Shown here one piece after another: positions 3,785-42,372 of a stretch of DNA of 64,000 nt. The stretch covers positions 47,384 through 111,383 of the forward strand of contig DYDB01000001.1 in NCBI GenBank assembly GCA_020718085.1, read 5' to 3'. Made by a program: the position numbers and the translations under genes. The notes under the pieces are model-generated. The model was not told where the DNA came from, searched no databases, and saw only the letters and a list, made by a program, of their open reading frames with translations. The number at the start of each line of letters is the position of its first letter. Positions within the stretch are counted from its first letter, which is position 1. The DNA is from Micavibrio sp. Lineage in GTDB: Bacteria; Patescibacteriota; Minisyncoccia; Moranbacterales; GCA-2747515.

Positions 3785-3811
3785 TATACAAAAAACTGTT
3801 AGTATTTTTTT

Positions 3812-5059
3812 ATGATCCGTCAATTGCTTCTCTCACTTCGTATCACGTGGCAAAATTTTTTTGCGGCAAAGTTGCGCACATCTTTGACGGTTTTAGGTAT
3901 TGTTATTGGCATTGCTGCCATTTTGATCGTTATGAGCATCGGAGCGAGCGCACAAGATCTGATTCTTGGTCAAATTCGTGCTGTAGGATCGAATTTGATT
4001 GGTATTTTGCCAGGTGCATCGGAAGATGATGGTCCGCCGGCGAGTGCATTTGGTATTGTGATCACAACCCTTACAAATGATGACCTGGAGGCTTTGAGAA
4101 AAAAGAGTAATGTGCCACATGCGGTTGCAATTTCCGGTTATGTCACAGGTAACGCTATTGTCAAAAGTAAAAATTATACCAAATCACAAACGTTTCAAGG
4201 CGTCTCGGCAGATATGATCAATGTGGAAAACAACACAATTTCTACCGGACGTTTTTTTTCTGTTGCGGAAGATGAAAAAAATGCACACGTTGCCGTATTG
4301 GGAGCGACAATTGCAAAAGACATTTTTGATGATGCTGATCCTCTTGGTAAAAAAATCAAGATCGATGATCAAACATTTCGAGTTGTTGGCGTACTAAAGC
4401 CAAAGGGTTCATCATTGATCTCTAATTTTGACGAGATGATCTATATCCCACTTCAGGCTGCACAAAAAAATCTTTTGGGAATTGATCACTTGAATTTCAT
4501 TCGTTTACGTGTGGATAGTGAAGAACATATGGTACAAACAGAAAAAGATGTAGATGCGCTTTTACGATCAAGACATGATATTCCTGATGATGAAAATGGG
4601 GATTATTCCATACGCAATATGGCAAGCGCTTTGTCGATCATCAATAATGTAACCAACATTATGAAATATTTTCTTGCAGCAGTTGCTGCGGTCTCTTTGA
4701 TCGTCGGAGGAATTGGTGTGATGAACATCATGTTCATTGCACTATCACAACGTATTCGTGAAATTGGTTTACGCAAGGCAGTAGGCGCACGCAAAAGAGA
4801 TATTGTGACGCAATTCCTTTTTGAGTCCATGACCATTGCTTGTGTTGGAGGAATTGTTGGATTTTTAAGCGGTTTGGGTGTGGTGTATTTTGTAGGCTAT
4901 GTTGCACGCGTACAAGGTTATACATGGACGGTCTTTCTTTCGTGGAATATGGTCGTGATGGCATTGATCACATCAGCGATCTTGGGATTCTTTTTCGGCA
5001 TTTATCCGGCATGGAAAGCATCGAAAATCTCTCCAATGGAAGCATTACGTTACGAATAA
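3812..5059 (+). CDS. ABC transporter permease, FtsX/MacB type
   Basis: N-terminal TM, large periplasmic domain and C-terminal FtsX-like four-TM bundle (GGIGVMNIM...RIREIGLRKAVGA). Confidence 0.8.
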   Translation: MIRQLLLSLRITWQNFFAAKLRTSLTVLGIVIGIAAILIVMSIGASAQDLILGQIRAVGSNLIGILPGASEDDGPPASAFGIVITTLTNDDLEALRKKSNVPHAVAISGYVTGNAIVKSKNYTKSQTFQGVSADMINVENNTISTGRFFSVAEDEKNAHVAVLGATIAKDIFDDADPLGKKIKIDDQTFRVVGVLKPKGSSLISNFDEMIYIPLQAAQKNLLGIDHLNFIRLRVDSEEHMVQTEKDVDALLRSRHDIPDDENGDYSIRNMASALSIINNVTNIMKYFLAAVAAVSLIVGGIGVMNIMFIALSQRIREIGLRKAVGARKRDIVTQFLFESMTIACVGGIVGFLSGLGVVYFVGYVARVQGYTWTVFLSWNMVVMALITSAILGFFFGIYPAWKASKISPMEALRYE

Positions 5060-5064
5060 AAAAT

Positions 5065-6321
5065 ATGAATATCATTTCTCTTATTATTATTTCGGTCAAA
5101 AGTCTCTTTTCGCATAAGATGCGTACAGTTTTGACGCTTTTGGGTATTATTGTAAGTGTAATGGCGATCATGAGCGTGGTGACAATGGGTGAATCCTTTC
5201 AGTCATATGTGAGCGGTGAAATTGAGGCATTTGGCACCGACACGATCCAAGTAGAAACATCCCTTCCTGAAACGGAGCATGTATCTTCTGAGAATGCATC
5301 AAGCATGGCGATGGGCGTGCAAATTACTACGCTTACGGAAGATGATGCAGAGGCATTGGCGCAATTGCCAAATGTTGTAGCGTATAACACGGGACTTCTC
5401 GGACAGGCGCGGGCGAAGTATGATGATAAAAAAAGATATGTAACAATTTTGGGGTCTAGTGCTGATGCACTAGTTGTCGATCCTGGCGCTGAGATCGCAT
5501 ACGGAAGATTTTTTACAGAAGAAGAACATCGCACATCGGAAAATGTGATCGTTGTAGGTTCCACAGTTGCAGAAGCACTTTTTGATAAGGTGGGGGATGA
5601 AGTGATTGGAACACGCGTTACTCTCAATGATAATCGATATAAGGTGGTGGGTATTTTGAAAGAGCGTGGCGCTTCATTTGGATTTTCTTTTGATGATATG
5701 GTATATATGCCGCATACCACATTACAAAAAAAGATCTTGGGCATTGATTACTTGAGTTACATTACTTTTAAGGTGGGTGATGTGCAAACAATTGATCAAA
5801 CAGCAGAAAGTATGCGATGGATATTGCGCTCGCGTCATGAAATTGATACGCCAAGTGAGGATGATTTTTCTGTTATGACGATCATTGAAGCACAAGACAT
5901 GTTTGATACAATCCTTGGCGGTGTAAATATCTTACTTCTGGCTCTGGCTTCCATTTCTCTTTTGGTTGGTGGAATTGGAATTATGAATATTATGCTGGTG
6001 TCGATTGAAGAACGGCGCATGGAAATTGGTTTGCGGAAAGCTCTTGGTGCGCGTAAGCGAGACATCATCAAGCAGTTTGTGATCGAATCAATTGTGATCG
6101 CATGTGCAGGATCGATCATTGGCATTATTATCACCACAGTTCTTCTCTCCGCTGCATTTGCTGCGATTCGTTATGCAGGGTTTGATGACATTAATTTTTA
6201 TATTCCCACACGAGCAATACTTGTGGCGATGATCTTTTCTGTGTCATCAGGCATTATCTTTGGTGTATATCCGGCACGTCGTGCAGCGGCGATCTCACCC
6301 ATGCAAGCAATCTCCTCGTAA
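5065..6321 (+). CDS. ABC transporter permease, FtsX/MacB type (paralogue)
   Basis: Same architecture and motifs as 3812-5059 (GGIGIMNIM...RRMEIGLRKALGA). Start moved to the ATG at 5065, just after the stop of the upstream gene. Confidence 0.8.
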   Translation: MNIISLIIISVKSLFSHKMRTVLTLLGIIVSVMAIMSVVTMGESFQSYVSGEIEAFGTDTIQVETSLPETEHVSSENASSMAMGVQITTLTEDDAEALAQLPNVVAYNTGLLGQARAKYDDKKRYVTILGSSADALVVDPGAEIAYGRFFTEEEHRTSENVIVVGSTVAEALFDKVGDEVIGTRVTLNDNRYKVVGILKERGASFGFSFDDMVYMPHTTLQKKILGIDYLSYITFKVGDVQTIDQTAESMRWILRSRHEIDTPSEDDFSVMTIIEAQDMFDTILGGVNILLLALASISLLVGGIGIMNIMLVSIEERRMEIGLRKALGARKRDIIKQFVIESIVIACAGSIIGIIITTVLLSAAFAAIRYAGFDDINFYIPTRAILVAMIFSVSSGIIFGVYPARRAAAISPMQAISS

Positions 6322-6357
6322 TAACGGTTCAAATAAAGTAGAAATTGTGTATTTTTT

Positions 6358-6416
6358 GTCATTCCAGACCTGCCTACCGACAGGCAAACGTCGACTTTGT
6401 TTCTAGGATGACAAGC
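6358..6416. repeat. MITE-like repeat, family B (gtcattccGACCctgcctaccgRcaggca...ggatgacaag)
   Basis: Near-identical copy at 27141-27198. The core also occurs reverse-complemented at 13285-13332, and fragments occur at 52694-52719 and 53287-53310. Confidence 0.6.
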
Positions 6417-6431
6417 ATATCAGTTTCATAT

Positions 6432-6459
6432 AAAAAACCGCCACGGAGGGCGGTTTTTT
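6432..6459. terminator. Bidirectional rho-independent terminator
   Basis: aaaaaaccgcc-acggag-ggcggtttttt: a perfect 6-bp GC stem flanked by an A-run and a T-run. Lies between convergent genes ending at 6321 (+) and 6478 (-). Confidence 0.8.
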
Positions 6460-6477
6460 CGTAAATGCGTGGAAAAG

Positions 6478-6720
6478 CTATTTTTTACGTCCAGTAAGGA
6501 GAGCAGCAATGCTTGCGCCGATTGCTGCACCTGCAGCAGCAGAAATTGCAGCTGCCTTTGCCGGGTTCTTCTTGATGAAATCAGCAACTTTCTTTTCTGC
6601 AACAACGAGTTCCTTTTTTACTTTTTTCATCTCTCTTTCAGCCACTTTTTGCAGCTTTTGAGCCTCTTTTTTAGCAATTGCACGCGGGTCAATCTTCTTT
6701 TTTGCGGTTTTTTGTACCAT
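6478..6720 (-). CDS. Small Lys-rich protein with C-terminal Gly/Ala-rich hydrophobic segment (function unknown)
   Basis: 80-aa ORF. Charged coiled-coil-like N-terminal part, then AAAISAAAGAAIGASIAALLTG followed by RKK. Ends at the bidirectional terminator. Confidence 0.5.
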   Translation of the reverse strand: MVQKTAKKKIDPRAIAKKEAQKLQKVAEREMKKVKKELVVAEKKVADFIKKNPAKAAAISAAAGAAIGASIAALLTGRKK

Positions 6721-6897
6721 TGTTTTATTTTTACATATTACACGCCCTCATTATAACACATTATGTAAAAATACCAACAAAAAGCCATTTTTTATGGTAT
6801 TATGAGATACTTGACAAAAAAGCAATTTTCTGCTATTATAGTTGGTTAACTCGACGATGTACGGAGATGTCTATCATAATAGAAATTATATTGTTTT

Positions 6898-7860
6898 ATG
6901 AACAGCAATCAACAAAAAAAGATCACTGTGATCATTCCTACATTTAATGTGGAGGATTTGATTGAGCAGGCAATTCGCTCTGTTTTATGGGCAGATGAGA
7001 TCTTTGTTGTGGACTCTTTTTCGACAGATCGTACAGTTGAGATCGCAAAAAAATATGGTGTGCGTGTTGTACAACATGAGTATGTGTACAGTGCAAAACA
7101 GAAAAACTGGGCAATTCCACAAGCAAAAAATGACTGGATACTTCTTCTTGATAGTGATGAGGTTGTAACAGATGAGCTTCGTGATACGATCCAACACATG
7201 CTTGCAACAAATAATATTGAATCATTTGATGGATTTGGTATTGCACGCAAACACTACTTTTTGGGAAAGTTCTTGCGATGGGGCGGACGATATCCATTGT
7301 ATAATATTCGATTATTCCGTAAGTCATGTCGCTATGAAGATCGCAATGTGCATGCACATATCATTCTTGCAAAAGATCGTATGAAAAATATTTCCGGAGA
7401 TATCTTGCACTATAGTGATCGATCATTGGAACAGTTTTTTGAGAAATTCAATCGATATTCCACATGGCAAGCAAACTACATGTTGCGTGTCTATGAACAT
7501 GGTATGACAAAGATCTCGTGGACAATGTTTTTGACAAATCCGTTTTATGCAAAGGCGATGATCAAAGACTTATGGACGTTTATTCCGTTGACGCCGCTCA
7601 TTCGCTTTGTATACATGTTCGTATTACGGTTAGGATTTTTGGATGGACGACACGGATTTATGATCGCATTCTTCTATGCATTTCAAGATTATGTTGCAAA
7701 AACCAAATATCTCGAGATGCGTAAAAAATCACCGAAGATGCGTCTCACATTCCAAAAGTATGTTGCAAAAAGTTGTGCATCACTCTGGCAATCACATAAA
7801 GGTTTTGGTAGCTATGTCGATAATGACTTCTCAATTAAAAGTAATAATGTAACCATATGA
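6898..7860 (+). CDS. Glycosyltransferase family 2
   Basis: N-terminal ITVIIPTFNVEDLIEQAIRSV...VVDSFSTDRT...LLDSDE (GT2 DxD-type signature). Confidence 0.75.
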   Translation: MNSNQQKKITVIIPTFNVEDLIEQAIRSVLWADEIFVVDSFSTDRTVEIAKKYGVRVVQHEYVYSAKQKNWAIPQAKNDWILLLDSDEVVTDELRDTIQHMLATNNIESFDGFGIARKHYFLGKFLRWGGRYPLYNIRLFRKSCRYEDRNVHAHIILAKDRMKNISGDILHYSDRSLEQFFEKFNRYSTWQANYMLRVYEHGMTKISWTMFLTNPFYAKAMIKDLWTFIPLTPLIRFVYMFVLRLGFLDGRHGFMIAFFYAFQDYVAKTKYLEMRKKSPKMRLTFQKYVAKSCASLWQSHKGFGSYVDNDFSIKSNNVTI

Positions 7861-22681: not shown

Positions 22682-22754
22682 GCCACTTTAGCTCAGTTGG
22701 TAGAGCATCGGTTTTGTAAACCGCAGGTCGTCAGTTCGAGTCTGACAAGTGGCT
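22682..22754 (+). tRNA. tRNA-Thr (anticodon UGU)
   Basis: Cloverleaf folded by hand: acceptor gccactt/aagtggc, anticodon loop tttgtaa with U33-UGU-A37, short variable loop, T-loop ttcgagt. CCA is not encoded. Confidence 0.75.
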
Positions 22755-22868
22755 CAAGACAGTAGAAAGTTTGTAAAGTTAAAAGTTATGAAGGAAGGAT
22801 CTGTGTGTATATTACACACTTATTATCTTTTGACTTTATGAACTTTTCAACTTTGTGACTGTTAAATT

Positions 22869-22951
22869 GGGTCGGTGGCAGAGTGGTCAAATGCACCTGA
22901 CTGTAAATCAGGCGTCTTCGGACTTCGGGGGTTCAAATCCCTCCCGGCCCA
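22869..22951 (+). tRNA. tRNA-Tyr (anticodon GUA)
   Basis: Anticodon stem-loop cctga/ctgtaaa/tcagg. The long variable arm (cgtcttcggacttcg) is typical of bacterial Tyr. T-loop ttcaaat. Confidence 0.8.
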
Positions 22952-23019
22952 CAATACAACCAAGAGAGCGGATGTGGCCGATTACTGTAAAGTGTCGGCT
23001 TTATCTGTAAAAGGCATAT

Positions 23020-23092
23020 GCCTAGATAGCTCAGTCGGTAGAGCACATCCATGGTAAGGATGAGGTCGCCGGTTCAATCCCGGCTCTAGGCT
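23020..23092 (+). tRNA. tRNA-Thr (anticodon GGU)
   Basis: Acceptor gcctaga/tctaggc. D-arm gctcagtcggtagagc. Anticodon loop atggtaa (GGU). T-loop ttcaatc. Confidence 0.85.
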
Positions 23093-23173
23093 CAGAATAA
23101 TAGTGTATAATAGAGAACATGGGAGTCTGTTGTGCGAGGACAGGCGGGCCTGTCCACCGGAGTTAAAACGTAG

Positions 23174-23244
23174 GCGGGTGTAGTTTAGTGGTAGAACGAG
23201 GGTCTCCAAAACCCTTAGTGGGAGTTCGATTCTCTCCACCCGTG
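23174..23244 (+). tRNA. tRNA-Trp (anticodon CCA)
   Basis: Anticodon stem-loop agggt/ctccaaa/accct (CCA). T-arm gggag/ttcgatt/ctctc. The acceptor pairs with a G1-U72 wobble. Exact ends are +/-2 nt. Confidence 0.75.
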
Positions 23245-23251
23245 CATACAA

Positions 23252-23286
23252 AAAACAGCTTCTTCTGGGGGGGGGCTGTTTTTGTT
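23252..23286 (+). terminator. Rho-independent terminator after the tRNA cluster
   Basis: aacagc ... G-rich loop ... gctgttttt followed by gttt. Confidence 0.5.
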
Positions 23287-23368
23287 TATCTTGATAGTAT
23301 AATAGCTGAAACCATGTTATGCTCAATAGACAAAAAATACGGTGTAATGAAGTAGATTTCAGAAAAAT

Positions 23369-23998
23369 ATGCAGAGTAATCTGAAAAAAATATTAGATGA
23401 TTTTAAGGACAAGCGATCTATTTATGAAGAGTTCTGTTTGGCGATGTATAAATTCTTGGATAGCATGCTTGTTATTGATGGTTGCAAATACCAGATATTT
23501 TATAGGATCAAAGAATTTGACAAACTTGAAGAAAAAATTATACGTAAAGAAAAAGAGGGGATCGTCTATACGAACCTTGAAGAATTGGAAGATTTGGCGG
23601 GTCTTCGAATCCTATTTTATCTCGAGTCAGATAAGGATAAATTTGTGAAAAAATTACTATCGGAATTGACGGGAGATGTTACTATTAAAAATCATAAAAA
23701 ATTATCCGGCTATGAAGCAACACACATCATTACAAGTTTTGGAGAAAAAAGGATCAGTTTGAGCGAATACAGCAAGTTTGAGGGATTGAAATGTGAAATA
23801 CAATTGACATCCATCTTGCATCATGCGTGGTCGGAAATTGAACATGACATGATCTACAAAGACACTTTGGGAGTCAAGAATAGTAAAGTGAAAAGTGTTT
23901 TTATAAAAAAAGAGATGAAAAAGATCCTATCAAATTATCTCATTAAGGCTTCCACTGAGCTGGACAATCTGGTCAAAAAAATTAAAAAAAGGAAATAA
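23369..23998 (+). CDS. RelA/SpoT-domain nucleotidyltransferase (small alarmone synthetase-like; possible toxSAS-type toxin)
   Basis: Motifs EDLAGLRILF, GYEATHII and EIQLTSILHHAWSEIEHDMIYK align with the RelQ/RelP synthetase motifs (DIAGLRI, GYRSxHL, EIQIRTxxMxxWAxxEHxxxYK). 209 aa. Lies in an AT-rich, codon-shifted island. Confidence 0.7.
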   Translation: MQSNLKKILDDFKDKRSIYEEFCLAMYKFLDSMLVIDGCKYQIFYRIKEFDKLEEKIIRKEKEGIVYTNLEELEDLAGLRILFYLESDKDKFVKKLLSELTGDVTIKNHKKLSGYEATHIITSFGEKRISLSEYSKFEGLKCEIQLTSILHHAWSEIEHDMIYKDTLGVKNSKVKSVFIKKEMKKILSNYLIKASTELDNLVKKIKKRK

Positions 23999-24119
23999 AA
24001 TGGCTTCACCCGTGCAGATAGGAATAGAACCAAAATTTGAGGCTAGGGAAGCCTTTTTTTGGTTTCAATCTTTTAGGATAAGAATGGAAGAGTGGAAATT
24101 TTTATGATAGAGTTTAATT

Positions 24120-25220
24120 ATGAAAGCAAAAGTTCATAAAATTGAAGACTTTGGTTATGATCCATTTTTTGAATCCAATCGTGTAAAACTCGGACTGGAT
24201 GTTTTTCATGTGGCTCGAGTGATCTCTGAACAAAAGGGAATTTATAAGGTTAAAAATGCCAATGGTGAATATTTGGCAAAAATAACCGGAAAACAAATTT
24301 TTAAAGCCTCTTCTAAGGAAGATTATCCGTCTGTGGGTGATTGGGTGGCAATTTCTGAATTGGAAGTGCATAAAGCAATGATCCGTAGTATATTACCGAG
24401 GAGAACAGTGATGAAGAGGAAATGCAGTGGTAAAAAAAATGAAACCCAAATAATAGCAACGAATATTGACGTGGCCTTTGTCATTGAATCAGTTGATAGG
24501 GACTATAATTTGAATCGATTTGAAAGATATTTTGCCATAGCGAATGATGGGGGCATAAAACCAGCTATCATATTGAACAAAGTAGATCTGATCTCCAAAG
24601 AAGAATTATATGCAAAAATTTCCCAAATAAAAGACAGATTCAAAGATGTTGAAGTCATTCCAACTAGCGCTGTGACGGATGAAGATCTGGATGAATTAAG
24701 GGGATATATAAAAAAGGGTAAAACGTATTGTTTTCTAGGTTCCTCCGGAGTGGGAAAATCTTCTTTGATAAATAAACTGATTGGTAGTGGGAGTGAGATA
24801 AAAACTGGAGACGTCGGTTTACGTTCCGGGAGAGGAAAGCATGTAACTACAACGAGAGAAATGTATTTTTTGAAAAATGGTGGCATTGTAATAGATACTC
24901 CCGGGATGCGAGAGGTGGGGATGACTGACACAACTGCTGGTGTAGATAATTTATTCGATGAGATCACAACTCTCGCCAAGAAATGTAAATTTATCGACTG
25001 TGATCATATTCATGAACCTAAATGCGAAGTTTTAGTTGCGCTAAAAGCAGGCCTGTTGGACAAAGAAAAGTATGCCAATTACATTCGATTAAAAAAAGAG
25101 TCTGAACATTATGAGATGACTCAACGTGAAAAAAAAGAAAAAGATCGAAAATTTGGTAAATTTATGAAAAATGCCAAGAAGGATTTGAAAAAGTATAAAA
25201 ACAAAAATTATAGTGTGTAA
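24120..25220 (+). CDS. rsgA: RsgA/YjeQ-type circularly permuted GTPase (ribosome small-subunit biogenesis GTPase family)
   Basis: N-terminal OB-like region. G4 NKVDL precedes G1 GSSGVGKSSLIN. GRGKHVTTTRE and IDTPGMRE motifs. C-terminal zinc finger CKFIDCDHIHEPKC. Lys-rich tail. Confidence 0.85.
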   Translation: MKAKVHKIEDFGYDPFFESNRVKLGLDVFHVARVISEQKGIYKVKNANGEYLAKITGKQIFKASSKEDYPSVGDWVAISELEVHKAMIRSILPRRTVMKRKCSGKKNETQIIATNIDVAFVIESVDRDYNLNRFERYFAIANDGGIKPAIILNKVDLISKEELYAKISQIKDRFKDVEVIPTSAVTDEDLDELRGYIKKGKTYCFLGSSGVGKSSLINKLIGSGSEIKTGDVGLRSGRGKHVTTTREMYFLKNGGIVIDTPGMREVGMTDTTAGVDNLFDEITTLAKKCKFIDCDHIHEPKCEVLVALKAGLLDKEKYANYIRLKKESEHYEMTQREKKEKDRKFGKFMKNAKKDLKKYKNKNYSV

Positions 25221-25745: not shown

Positions 25746-26384
25746 ATGACCGAAGAAGAATATAAGAATAGATTTGAAAAGTTATATCAACTTCTAACAA
25801 GAGCTCATTTGTGTTTTTTTGTTTGGAAGGGTCTTAAAAATGTAAAATATCAACCTCAATTTGACAGAGATAAAAATTTTTGGAGTGCTGTCGTTCCTTC
25901 CCTAGAGTCATCGTGGCTTCAATCTTTAGCTAATATTTACGAAGAATCAGATTACAGCAGAAAGGATAAAATTATATCGGTATATTCATTGATAAATAAT
26001 CAAAAAGATGTAGAAAGAAAGGTGAGAGCGGAAGTTATTATTAATCAGAATCAATCCATAATTAAAAACATTTCAATTCTTAGGAATAATCAGTTAGCTC
26101 ATTATAATGCCAATCATTTATTAAACCCAAAAGAGTTATTGGAAAAATTTCCTGTGAAATATGGGGAAGTGGAAAGATTGCTAGAAATAACTGAAGAACT
26201 ATTACGTTGTCTGCACCCCGAAAACAATCATAGTTTTTCGTTTGAGGGATTTGATAAGGAATCACAACGGGATTCAACTTTAATTATGGATAGGATTGAG
26301 TATTATCTAAAGCAGGAAAAGAAACACTATGAGAAAATGAAAGATGAAAATAAGTATGTTCATTTTCCGCCTCAAAAAGACTGA
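25746..26384 (+). CDS. Hypothetical protein with an Rx5H (HEPN-like) motif; candidate Abi-type protein
   Basis: 212-aa all-helical-looking ORF. LRNNQLAHYNANH contains R-x5-H in a predicted helix, as in HEPN RNase families (Rx4-6H). No other motifs. Confidence 0.5.
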   Translation: MTEEEYKNRFEKLYQLLTRAHLCFFVWKGLKNVKYQPQFDRDKNFWSAVVPSLESSWLQSLANIYEESDYSRKDKIISVYSLINNQKDVERKVRAEVIINQNQSIIKNISILRNNQLAHYNANHLLNPKELLEKFPVKYGEVERLLEITEELLRCLHPENNHSFSFEGFDKESQRDSTLIMDRIEYYLKQEKKHYEKMKDENKYVHFPPQKD

Positions 26385-33013: not shown

Positions 33014-33601
33014 ATGGAGAACATTGGTATAACGAGAGATGTTGCGTTGCAGCTTATAGATCAGCATATTGTCGATCCTGTGACGCGGTTGCATTTGCGT
33101 GAATCTGAGGAGATCATGCGAGCTCTTGCGCGACATTTTGGTGAGGATGAAGACGTGTGGGGTATCGCAGGATTATTACATGATATTGATTGGGATCTGA
33201 CAAAAAATGATACTGCACAACATTGTATAATGTGTCAGGACATTTTGAAAAATGCGGGTGCGACGGACTTTCTTATTACAACGATCGTCTCCCATGGCTA
33301 TGGAAACGAATCAATCCCCGCACTTATGGCGTATAAACGCACAATGCGCATACAATATGCACTGGCTGCTGCAGAAACATTGACAGGACTTATTATTGCA
33401 TCGGCGCTTATGCAGCCGGACAAAAAACTTGCAAGCGTGAAAGCGAGTTCTTTGAAAAAGAAATTCAAAAACAAGGCTTTTGCGGCACGATGTGATCGTG
33501 CGATCATTGCCGAATGCGAACAGGCAGGTATTGCGTTGGACGATTTTTTGAATCTGGGGCTCATTTCTTTGCAGGGCATTGGCGATGAATTAGGTATGTA
33601 A
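33014..33601 (+). CDS. HD-domain phosphohydrolase
   Basis: H...HD motif: RLHLRESEEIMRALARHFGEDEDVWGIAGLLHDIDW. Confidence 0.65.
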   Translation: MENIGITRDVALQLIDQHIVDPVTRLHLRESEEIMRALARHFGEDEDVWGIAGLLHDIDWDLTKNDTAQHCIMCQDILKNAGATDFLITTIVSHGYGNESIPALMAYKRTMRIQYALAAAETLTGLIIASALMQPDKKLASVKASSLKKKFKNKAFAARCDRAIIAECEQAGIALDDFLNLGLISLQGIGDELGM

Positions 33602-36903: not shown

Positions 36904-38031
36904 ATGTATAACAGTAAACCGGATGGTTTTCATTTTTTATTGGAATTTTTTGGGTGTGATATCAAGCAGATCAATGACATGGATTTTTGGCGCACAGAGC
37001 TCCACGCAGCAATCGAGGGCACGTCCATGGAATCATTGCATGATTTTTTCTTTAAATTCGAACCGCATGGCATTACGGGATATCTTCTTCTTTCTTCTTC
37101 ACATATCTCTATTCACACATGGCCGGAAAACGGGTATGTAGTGTGCGATGTTTTCACCTGCTCTACAGAAGTGGAGACAGAGAAAGCTGTGCAACATCTC
37201 AAGGATCAGATCACACATGATCGCGTAGAGGTAAAGAAGATCCAGCGTGGATTTAAGGTGTCACGCAAAGGTGGTGTAGTGCAAGATGTTGCGCAATGCA
37301 CGCTTGATCGACACTGTGTGAAACTGCCTGTGTATAGCACGGGAAAGAAAATGCCGTTGGATGTATTGCAGTTGATTGTGGAAATTGAAACAGCTGTGCA
37401 GAAGATCTCGATCGTTGATACACTGGAATTTGGGAAGTGCTTGATCATCAACGGAATATTGCATACAGCGGAAAAAGATCATTATCTCTATGACCGTGAG
37501 CTCATTAAGCAATTGCGGTCCAGCGATAAGGACATTCTCATTCTAGGTGGTGGTGATGGCTATGTGGCACGGCGTGTAATATCGGAAAATCCGAATGCAC
37601 AGATCAATGTGGATGTGGTGGACATGGATGTGGAAGTGGTCAAGGCATGTGAACGCTACTTGGGACAAGGTGTCTTTCAACGAAATGAGGCGCGGATCCA
37701 TATTGGAGATGCATTACATTTTCTCAAGATGACACGCAAGAAATATGACGGCATTATATTTGATCTCACAAAAGAACCGATCGGACGTGCAGAGGATGAA
37801 CAATTCATCCAGTTTTATAAAGATTTGTGTGCTTTGGCACATACACATACCAAAGACCAAGGATGGATTGCCATACAAGCAGGCACATCTTCTGTCGTAA
37901 AGAAATATATGGACACGGCAACGGTCATCACATCGATCTTGCATGATACGCGATGGAAAAAAATTGACCGCAGTGATGTCATGATCCCAAGTCATGGGGA
38001 AAATTATGCATTCCTCTTTGCAAAGAAATAA
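36904..38031 (+). CDS. Fusion: pyruvoyl-dependent S-adenosylmethionine decarboxylase (SpeH/class 1b) + spermidine synthase (aminopropyltransferase)
   Basis: N-terminal LLSSSHISIHTWPENGYVVCDVFTC (AdoMetDC proenzyme motif). C-terminal ILILGGGDGYVARRV...IIFDLTK (SpeE). 375 aa. Confidence 0.75.
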   Translation: MYNSKPDGFHFLLEFFGCDIKQINDMDFWRTELHAAIEGTSMESLHDFFFKFEPHGITGYLLLSSSHISIHTWPENGYVVCDVFTCSTEVETEKAVQHLKDQITHDRVEVKKIQRGFKVSRKGGVVQDVAQCTLDRHCVKLPVYSTGKKMPLDVLQLIVEIETAVQKISIVDTLEFGKCLIINGILHTAEKDHYLYDRELIKQLRSSDKDILILGGGDGYVARRVISENPNAQINVDVVDMDVEVVKACERYLGQGVFQRNEARIHIGDALHFLKMTRKKYDGIIFDLTKEPIGRAEDEQFIQFYKDLCALAHTHTKDQGWIAIQAGTSSVVKKYMDTATVITSILHDTRWKKIDRSDVMIPSHGENYAFLFAKK

Positions 38032-38053
38032 GCTTAAATAACTATTCACATAC

Positions 38054-38803
38054 ATGGAAAATATCAACACAGGAGAAAAAAGGGAAGATGTCGTGAAGAT
38101 CACACAACCGATCTATGCAACAGGAGAGCAAATGGAGATCATTGTAAAAGAAAAATTAGCGGAGATGACGTCTGAATTTCAAAAGATCACCTTTGTGGAT
38201 ACAAAAGATTTTGGGCGATGTTTGATCATTGACGATGTGATTCAGACATCAGAAGCAGATCATGAAATTTATGATGCGGAAATGTTAAGTAGAATGAAAC
38301 CAACTGATCGCGATGTTATGATCCTAGGTGGTGGTGATGGATATATCGCTCAAATGGCAATAGCCAAAAATGATCAGGTGCATGTAACGATCGCTGATCT
38401 TGATAGTATGGTGGTGGAGGGATGTAAAAAATATCTCGATCAAAAAGTTTTTGAAGATGAACGGGTAAAATTACACATTGGTGACGCACTTGCGTATATG
38501 CGTGAAAGTGGGCAAGAATATGATGGTGTTGTATGTGATCTGACTGATGCACCGGTGGGCGCCAAAGAACTGGAAGAGTTTGAGAAGTTTTTTGAAGAGG
38601 TGATCATGTTGTCACATAAATGCATACGCAGTGGAGGATGGATGAGCTTTCAATCTGGTGCATCGGAAGTCTCGGAACAATTTATTAATTCTGTCGTTAT
38701 CGTTGAGGCTATTCTCAGGAAATATTTTAGCACTATAGAACGCAGTGACGTCATGATCCCGAGCTATGGAGAAAGTTGTGCATTTCTCTTTGCACAGAAA
38801 TAA
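38054..38803 (+). CDS. Spermidine synthase-like aminopropyltransferase (paralogue of the fused SpeE domain)
   Basis: VMILGGGDGYIAQMA. C-terminal DVMIPSYGESCAFLFAQK matches DVMIPSHGENYAFLFAKK in the upstream gene. Confidence 0.7.
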   Translation: MENINTGEKREDVVKITQPIYATGEQMEIIVKEKLAEMTSEFQKITFVDTKDFGRCLIIDDVIQTSEADHEIYDAEMLSRMKPTDRDVMILGGGDGYIAQMAIAKNDQVHVTIADLDSMVVEGCKKYLDQKVFEDERVKLHIGDALAYMRESGQEYDGVVCDLTDAPVGAKELEEFEKFFEEVIMLSHKCIRSGGWMSFQSGASEVSEQFINSVVIVEAILRKYFSTIERSDVMIPSYGESCAFLFAQK

Positions 38804-41841: not shown

Positions 41842-42372
41842 ATGCAAAGAAGAACATATTCTTGGATGAATCCATCAGTCGAAGTGCGAGAAACATTAGA
41901 GACGGGCAGAGGGATTTTTGCAATAAAAAATATTAGTAAGGGAGATTTGATCTCTGTGTTTGGTGGGTATGTGATAACACGTGCTGAGGAGCTTGAGCTG
42001 CCTGATGAATTTAATGACGAAGGTGTTCAAATTAGTGAGGATTTAATTTTGGGCATAAAAAGTGAAGCGGATCTTGAAGATGCGAGCTATATTAATCACA
42101 GTTGTAATCCAAACGCTGGATATAATGGACAAATATTTCTTGTGGCGATGCATGATATCAAAAATGGTGAGGAGATTACATTTGATTATGCGATGTGCTT
42201 ATATCAGTCAGAAAATGAAAAAAAGTATTCTTTTAAATGTTTCTGTGGAGCATTAAATTGTCGGAAAATTATTACAGACAATGATTGGAAAATTCCTGAG
42301 TTACAAAAAAAATATGATGGCTATTTCCAATGGTTTTTACAAAAGAGGATTAATGATAAGAATGATAACTAG
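41842..42372 (+). CDS. SET-domain protein (putative protein lysine methyltransferase)
   Basis: GRGIFA...NHSCNPNAGY...EEITFDY. Post-SET cysteines CFCGALNC. 176 aa. AT-rich, codon-shifted region. Confidence 0.8.
   Translation: MQRRTYSWMNPSVEVRETLETGRGIFAIKNISKGDLISVFGGYVITRAEELELPDEFNDEGVQISEDLILGIKSEADLEDASYINHSCNPNAGYNGQIFLVAMHDIKNGEEITFDYAMCLYQSENEKKYSFKCFCGALNCRKIITDNDWKIPELQKKYDGYFQWFLQKRINDKNDN

Follow-up and report, generated by a model that had tools for sequence, protein, structure and literature searches.

A stand-alone RelA/SpoT-homologue synthetase of a groundwater Candidatus Moranbacteria belongs to a lineage with a paired Arg/Ser replacement

The stretch of DNA analyzed here (hereafter the window) comprises 64,000 nucleotides from a groundwater Candidatus Moranbacteria. 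At 23369–23998 on its forward strand, to which all window coordinates below refer, a gene of 209 codons with an ATG start encodes a single-domain RelA/SpoT-homologue (RSH) synthetase. The 209-amino acid protein is predicted from its sequence to be a catalytically competent, stand-alone RSH pyrophosphokinase with the architecture of the small alarmone synthetases (SAS) RelP and RelQ. Its EIQLTS motif, in which a threonine takes the place of the canonical arginine, is a lineage signature and no one-off, judging from the sequences of its relatives. New here are the lineage-wide paired replacement of this arginine and of a serine, the mainly patescibacterial distribution of the lineage, and its kinship with solenoid fusion proteins, whereas the small RSH synthetase as a kind is already known. 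The Thr-type lineage was not described in the literature or libraries that we searched; it may already have a name among the 30 curated subfamilies of SAS in Jimmy et al. (2020).

The protein contains a RelA_SpoT domain (PF04607) that scores 50.2 bits against a gathering threshold of 27 (E 3.5e-13). A confident AlphaFold2 (AF2) monomer model assumes a RelP/RelQ-like fold with helix α1 (aa 3–36), a core of strands β1–β5, helix α4, and a long C-terminal helix (aa 173–208). The helices that mediate tetramerization in RelQ and RelP are seen in this model, and inspection of the sequence revealed neither an N-terminal extension nor a hydrophobic leader. RelP and RelQ are the best matches in both sequence and structure and share the length and architecture of the protein, with ∼20–23% identity in fold searches. 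A profile of the family retrieved RelP/RelQ with E 3e-15 and CapRel (PDB code 7ZTB) with E 8e-5 over the core only; the single sequence gave no CapRel match at E up to 1. An earlier sequence-only reading of the stretch had recognized a divergent small RelA/SpoT synthetase, and both this assignment and all the motifs it quoted are borne out by our analysis.

We mapped the active-site residues onto RelP of S. aureus by alignment to PDB entry 6EWZ and took their conservation from a 40-sequence alignment of the family. In RelP, the adenine of ATP is stacked by R78 and R112 and the phosphates are bound by K80, K88, R91, and S84; the Mg ligands are D107 and E174, the ribose is held by H190, and Y151 binds the guanosine substrate (Steinchen et al. 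2018, PMC5794853). The ATP-phosphate/adenine motif R46-x-K48-x3-K52-x3-K56-x2-R59 (23504–23545) corresponds to R78, K80, S84, K88, and R91 of RelP; a lysine occupies position 52 where RelP has S84, and this position varies across the family. The EDLAGLRILF motif (aa 74–83, 23588–23617) supplies the Mg ligand D75 (RelP D107), followed by G78 and the adenine-stacking R80 (RelP R112). In the GYEATHII block (aa 114–121; GYEATH at 23708–23725), Y115 is the tyrosine that stacks the acceptor base (RelP Y151), A117 stands in place of the serine of GYxSxH, and H119 is conserved. EIQLTS (aa 143–148, 23795–23812) lies on strand β5 and provides the second Mg ligand, E143 (RelP E174), then Q145, then T147 instead of the canonical arginine (RelP R178), and S148. 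The WSEIEHDMIYK block (aa 154–164, 23828–23860) contributes the ribose-binding H159 (RelP H190) and also holds the Y163-K164 pair. Eleven of these residues (R46, K48, K56, D75, R80, Y115, E143, Q145, H159, Y163, and K164) are invariant in the 40 homologues, and R59 is conserved in at least 90% of them. The alignment to RelP thus shows a canonical donor half of the active site, with both adenine-stacking arginines, the phosphate-binding lysines and arginines, the Mg ligands, and the ribose-binding histidine in place.

The family differs from RelP and RelQ in three respects: the arginine of EIQIRT is replaced by threonine, the serine of GYxSxH is replaced by alanine, and an extra insert, EKRISLSEYSKF (23744–23779), connects strands β4 and β5. 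Within this insert R128, E133, and Y134 are invariant. It is common to the short proteins and to the relatives of ∼360 and ∼1000 residues described below, whereas RelP, RelQ, and CapRel align here with gaps or unrelated residues. The distribution is a further difference to RelQ and RelP: ∼80 close and medium relatives have 204–258 residues and come mostly from Patescibacteria, plus one cluster from Syntrophobacteraceae. A profile search of 1.84 billion representative sequences returned 773 proteins at E < 1e-30. After the short family, most of the top profile matches are proteins of ∼950–1030 residues that contain the whole 209-residue module at their N terminus, and these outrank a family of ∼360-residue proteins.

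A motif census of 305 module sequences shows how widespread the arginine replacement is. Position 147 is threonine in 87 of the 96 short proteins. The change from arginine to threonine noted by the sequence-only reading is real, and the lineage as a whole has conserved it. The long proteins (n = 113) have threonine in 75 cases and serine in 18, whereas 74 of the 86 ∼360-residue proteins retain arginine. In a column-wise comparison of 177 Thr-type and 88 Arg-type sequences, just two columns were at least 80% conserved in both sets and yet differed, namely position 147 (Thr versus Arg) and position 117, which is alanine in 80% of the Thr-type and serine in 90% of the Arg-type sequences. The same comparison revealed no compensating basic residue specific to the Thr-type set. 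In the model, E143, Q145, and T147 alternate along strand β5, as do Y115, A117, and H119 along β4. Because of this alternation, residues 117 and 147 should face the side of the catalytic glutamate and the stacking tyrosine, i.e. the acceptor side. The floor of the acceptor pocket would differ from that of all characterized enzymes.

The family is old and under strong constraint, as indicated by low ratios of nonsynonymous to synonymous substitution rates (dN/dS) together with saturated synonymous sites. For the pairs where it could be computed, dN/dS was 0.055 and 0.018; in the remaining pairs, one of them at 92% protein identity, dS was not computable, which we read as saturation. In base composition, examined as a possible sign of horizontal transfer, the gene has a GC content of 32.5%, compared with 40.8% for the window, but its GC content at third codon positions, 0.38, is inside the range of the neighboring core genes. 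A phage origin was considered and rejected, as tblastn against 50,697 phage records yielded only weak, partial matches to the generic domain. Membership in the PADLOC candidate system PDC-S33 was likewise rejected, because only model positions 41–175 of 349 match (41 bits), which is the generic synthetase domain.

A neighbor-joining tree of 246 modules separates the Arg-type proteins of ∼360 residues from the non-Arg proteins, both short and long. The short family forms one clade next to a subclade of long proteins, and other long proteins fall outside. Bootstrapping was performed with 153 sequences and 200 replicates, using cleaned groups, after groups defined by length only had given ∼0% support because fragments were misclassified. 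The split between Arg-type proteins and the rest reached a purity of at least 0.9 in 100% of the bootstraps; the short clade reached this purity in 90% and was recovered exactly in 66%, and the long proteins were never monophyletic. The short family is probably nested among the N-terminal modules of the ∼1000-residue proteins. The simplest reading of this tree, with moderate support, is that a fusion gene which lost its solenoid part would have given rise to the short gene.

The ∼1000-residue relatives, which come from Paceibacterota, Nomurabacteria, and Moranbacteria, begin with a Thr-type RelA_SpoT module and continue with a HEAT-like α-solenoid of ∼790 residues (P0134, P0139, and others; loci L011, L055, L056, L059, and L069). 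The synthetase domain is the sole match of these proteins in the Pfam, NCBIfam, and PADLOC libraries, and the solenoid part has none. At the three loci examined, their genes adjoin restriction-modification genes of the DpnII and MmeI/HsdR types or genes for serine recombinases, excisionase-like helix-turn-helix proteins, and SRA, UvrD, trypsin-like, or MORC-like proteins. A search with the tail only retrieved stand-alone solenoid proteins of 800–817 residues that lack the synthetase domain (P0314, P0316–P0325; loci L051–L066). These are 38–62% identical to the fused form, and some are from Moranbacteria.

The 24 metagenome loci obtained by an alignment-based scan include 12 complete genes for such solo solenoids and 4 fused genes. 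No synthetase gene was present in the 12 complete solo loci within the recovered flanks, which are short in several of them. In nine solo loci, the upstream gene overlaps the start of the solenoid gene or stops a few bases short of it. The upstream partner is an HNH protein in three loci (with a borderline Pfam HNH score of 22.0 versus 21.4 bits in one and a score below the cut-off in another), a DUF4365 protein in three, and a ∼440-residue protein without Pfam match or PDB relative in three; the remaining three loci have a 290-residue gene, a 97-residue gene, and a partial 148-residue gene at this place. These pairings suggest an exchangeable effector role for the synthetase module. Modular conflict systems show this pattern, in which one conserved scaffold combines with alternative partners, here including the Thr-type synthetase module; architecture and neighborhood together suggest a role in defense. 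The apparent two-gene solenoid systems matched no known system in the Pfam, NCBIfam, and PADLOC libraries. An effector module on a solenoid scaffold that otherwise partners nuclease-type genes makes this a candidate for a modular defense system of Patescibacteria absent from these libraries. A different apparent defense-type fusion was noticed outside the window, among the profile matches: P0153 (1475 residues) combines a TIR domain, a weak SAVED match below threshold, and two canonical, Arg-type RelA_SpoT stretches.

In the mechanism that we propose, the 209-residue enzyme would transfer the β,γ-pyrophosphate of ATP onto the 3′-OH of a purine nucleotide. The resulting alarmone would be of the (p)ppGpp and/or (pp)pApp type, the remodeled pocket floor may have shifted the preference of the enzyme, and the effect would be slower growth. 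A purine nucleotide as the acceptor and an alarmone as the product are our tentative preference, held at somewhat less than an even chance. This preference is based on the fact that sequence and fold are nearer to RelP/RelQ than to the tRNA-using toxic SAS (toxSAS), that the terminal helices of RelP/RelQ are kept, that the catalytic core is slightly acidic (net charge −3 for aa 1–170), which is weak evidence, and that an enzyme which stands alone, with no antitoxin, has to be tolerated. Restraint of the enzyme would probably come from a promoter of its own and/or from oligomeric auto-inhibition, by analogy with RelQ and Pag1B. The gene would have originated as a free-standing copy of a defense-type effector module and would now be kept by itself, as a cassette of one gene, in a slot of variable content beside tRNA genes.

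Pag1B/GRel of the PANGU system provides the best functional analogy for a defense-derived synthetase that lacks an antitoxin, as far as published descriptions allow the two to be likened. This toxSAS lacks an antitoxin, causes no toxicity by itself, and forms an inert homotetramer; it makes (pp)pGpp and, on activation, pppGpp (bioRxiv 10.64898/2026.04.06.716658). An enzyme that is harmless alone and active once activated makes descent from a defense effector compatible with a missing antitoxin. However, two features of Pag1B, a DNA-mimic domain at its C terminus and an adjoining gene for a YejK-like activator, are absent here. We also considered the Arg-type relatives of ∼360 residues as PANGU/GRel operons, but rejected this assignment, as two loci had no neighbor of the nucleoid-associated protein (NAP) type.

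Several points weigh against a nucleotide-using growth regulator derived in this way. The sequence does not reveal the acceptor substrate, and with tRNA-using toxSAS lacking a clear signature, the nucleotide acceptor is a preference only. The nearest relatives resemble effectors of conflict systems, which argues for a harsher activity than that of a housekeeping synthetase. The position of residues 117 and 147 on the acceptor side, where they should lie, derives solely from strand periodicity in the model, and we found no statement on what the canonical arginine contacts in the RelP/RelQ/Rel literature that we searched. Charge counts over whole proteins say little about a patch on the surface, and the comparison of net charge with tRNA-using toxSAS was uninformative. 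Support for the neighbor-joining tree is modest, with its exact short clade in 66% of the replicates, and oligomerization and regulation of the protein are proposals only, made by analogy.

The main rival is an enzyme of the translation-targeting toxSAS type with the same chemistry. Like CapRel, FaRel2, and PhRel2, it would use as its acceptor the adenosine at the 3′ terminus of tRNA, or else the 3′ end of another RNA. We consider this unlikely. In its favor, the closest relatives take the place of the effector in a modular solenoid system, beside nucleases, and occur in neighborhoods of defense and mobile-element genes, and a toxSAS-like nature of the 209-residue protein is indirectly suggested by this resemblance of its relatives to defense effectors. 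According to Kurata et al., tRNA-using toxSAS have no clear sequence signature, and differentially conserved motifs are confined to the (pp)pApp makers. The C-terminal helix region is very basic, with a net charge of +10 over aa 171–209, and the invariant R128, whose family-specific insert would lie close to the exit of the acceptor, could contact the backbone of an RNA. On the other hand, tRNA-using toxSAS have been described with a strongly basic groove, and the catalytic core is slightly acidic here; moreover, neither an antitoxin gene nor a fused antitoxin domain is present in the six neighborhoods surveyed below.

The motif itself does not speak for an RNA acceptor either. The sequence-only reading had stated that such substitutions occur in toxSAS enzymes with altered substrates. 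The one case compared does not support this: CapRel of Salmonella phage SJ46, a proven tRNA pyrophosphokinase, keeps the arginine (EVQLRT, with GYSGIH as its other motif), so that the change from arginine to threonine is no CapRel-like trait. CapRel-SJ46 further differs in its architecture. With a total of ∼370 residues, it has an antitoxin/sensor domain of ∼180 residues fused to the C terminus of its synthetase domain, whereas the 209-residue protein ends after the helix equivalent to α5 and has nothing beyond the synthetase module in the alignment with CapRel-SJ46. FaRel, FaRel2, PhRel, and PhRel2 share with the protein a RelA_SpoT synthetase domain and a similar size, but their modules have a conserved adjacent and often overlapping antitoxin gene, which the copy in the window lacks. 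Tas1/Apk1 and the exported (p)ppApp makers are secreted and come with immunity proteins or signal peptides; the 209-residue protein has neither.

A more far-reaching proposal, which in its full form we also regard as unlikely, holds that a hitherto unrecognized RSH lineage, mainly of Patescibacteria, exists in two forms (∼210 residues alone and ∼1000 residues as a fusion to the HEAT-like solenoid), that the Arg/Ser changes retarget it to a non-canonical acceptor such as adenine nucleotides or an RNA 3′ end, and that the stand-alone form is a domesticated defense effector serving as a growth brake in reduced-genome bacteria without a dedicated hydrolase.

A further alternative concerns control and leaves the chemistry untouched. 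The protein might be an orphan effector with no activity by itself, dependent on a trans-acting partner from elsewhere in the genome, e.g. a stand-alone HEAT solenoid or another activator. Solo solenoids of 800–817 residues do exist, some in Moranbacteria and 38–62% identical to the fused form, they pair with varied upstream genes, and Pag1B demonstrates that an activator-dependent toxSAS is possible. Still, this must be considered quite improbable: no solenoid homologue was found in the 64-kb window or in any locus of a short gene, the recovered flanks of the 12 complete solo-solenoid loci, short in several cases, hold no gene for a short synthetase, and the partner at solo loci lies immediately upstream, overlapping the solenoid gene or a few bases from it, an arrangement unlike that of the gene in the window.

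The loss of the canonical arginine and serine and the poor conservation of the serine of RxKxxxSxxxK might suggest the remnant of a synthetase that has lost its activity, has degenerated, or does no more than bind nucleotides. This is very improbable, given that the ATP- and Mg-binding residues and the stacking tyrosine are conserved, dN/dS is 0.02–0.06, the fold model is confident, and the threonine itself is kept in more than 170 sequences. Least credible of all is an ordinary RelQ/RelP orthologue whose motif changed by neutral drift: despite the best matches in sequence and structure and the same length and architecture, the protein scores 33.4 bits against the RelQ equivalog NF053588 of NCBIfam (GTPPhKinYjbM), which has a cut-off of 320, identity is only ∼20–23%, the insert with its invariant R128, E133, and Y134 is specific to the family, and the nearest relatives are multidomain proteins of ∼1000 and ∼360 residues and no SAS enzymes of Firmicutes. 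Both of these outcomes, a degenerate copy and an ordinary orthologue, had been named by the sequence-only reading as what would overturn it, and neither applies.

The Thr-type lineage represents a natural experiment on the near-universal arginine of ExQxR[TS] and the serine of GYxSxH. As positions 117 and 147 are the sole conserved differences from the nearest Arg-keeping relatives, no more than two point mutations would be required to probe how they bear on the choice of acceptor. The literature that we searched says little on growth control or the use of alarmones in the Candidate Phyla Radiation.

The genomic setting of the gene is that of a monocistronic unit. Upstream lies a cluster of four tRNA genes (tRNA-Thr/Tyr/Thr/Trp) that is closed by a terminator-like hairpin at 23251–23283, so that the synthetase gene needs a promoter of its own. 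A candidate element, CATGTTATGCT (23313–23323), is located ∼50 nucleotides 5′ of the ATG. It also occurs ∼50 nucleotides before the start codon of an 83%-identical homologue (locus L008, ∼5946–5956), where the flanking genes are different, and may be a promoter element that travels with the synthetase gene. A scan of the upstream region with Rfam at E up to 1 returned the four tRNAs only and no riboswitch or other RNA element. Downstream of the stop codon, a second terminator-like hairpin followed by a T-run (24039–24055) indicates that the gene is transcribed alone.

We searched the open reading frames (ORFs) of at least 20 residues near the gene for an antitoxin. The candidate, a 35-residue ORF at 24000–24107, was rejected, as it overlaps the terminator and is unrelated to the 44-residue ORF that follows a homologue; no conserved small ORF lies downstream of the synthetase gene, and the mini-ORFs of the loci compared are mutually unrelated. 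The genes that follow encode an RsgA GTPase, a 104-residue protein, a HEPN_AbiU2 protein, a pentapeptide-repeat protein, a MarR regulator, and a PAS-GGDEF protein. The 104-residue protein has only weak matches below threshold to lipoprotein families, and no immunity-like neighbor was found at this locus. The HEPN_AbiU2 protein, three genes 3′ of the synthetase (25746–26384, 212 residues, Pfam E 6.9e-12), is of the abortive-infection type and lies in a stretch of lower G+C content (31–36%). No cognate hydrolase gene adjoins the synthetase gene, as the sequence-only reading had noted. The only HD protein seen in the window (33014–33601, 195 residues) was examined as the missing hydrolase and rejected: it is a generic HD/HDIG protein and not of the RSH-type HD_4 family (Pfam HD 24.4 bits, TIGR00277 just below the cut-off, no relative among PDB sequences), and we found no evidence that links it to the synthetase.

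To this locus we added five homologue loci in a neighborhood survey, spanning 44–100% identity with the window copy included. The neighbors are YggT and a glycosyltransferase for P0002 (92% identity), dCMP deaminase and GreA for P0009 (83%), SelR and a 3D-domain protein for P0018 (80%), a class II aminoacyl-tRNA synthetase (tRNA-synt_2b) and Glycos_transf_4 for P0038 (51%), and chloride channels for P0063 (44%). No neighbor is common to the six neighborhoods, and none of them contains an antitoxin gene or a fused antitoxin domain. The lack of a shared neighbor argues against a pairing of the toxin–antitoxin type.

RsgA-type GTPases bind (p)ppGpp, which made a functional link between the synthetase and the adjoining rsgA attractive. 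The adjacency of rsgA to the synthetase gene is, however, not conserved. In a related Moranbacteria locus (L018, RsgA 77% identical), positions 3803–7095 match window positions 22682–25220 in the order TPR protein, four tRNAs, a variable gene, and rsgA, with a 131-residue ORF inserted after the first of the four tRNAs. The variable gene encodes there a 313-residue Cys-rich protein with apparent membrane-spanning segments, as judged by inspection, and the slot holds no synthetase. A conserved linkage was also rejected on a larger sample, as a synthetase lies within 6 kb in 0 of 31 loci with an rsgA homologue. Together, the different gene in L018 and the 31 rsgA loci indicate that the synthetase occupies a variable slot next to tRNA genes.

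Further observations on this region concern its surroundings. As the comparison of L018 with the window illustrates, the cargo beside the tRNA cluster varies; downstream in L018 follows a methyltransferase-like gene with an N-terminal region that appears LexA-like on inspection. The RsgA-type GTPase of the window (24120–25220) has relatives of 52–77% identity in metagenome-assembled genomes of many groups of Patescibacteria (L018–L048) and also in those assigned to Omnitrophota, Bdellovibrionales, and Gammaproteobacteria, which is an unusually high identity for such distances. This wide spread could result from transfer or from mis-binning.

Two other regions of the window deserve mention. SET-domain proteins are uncommon in bacteria; one of 176 residues (Pfam E 2.1e-15) is encoded at 41842–42372, in the part of the window with the lowest G+C content (32%). 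At 36904–38803, a fusion of S-adenosylmethionine decarboxylase and spermidine synthase (375 residues) is directly followed by a second spermidine synthase of 249 residues.

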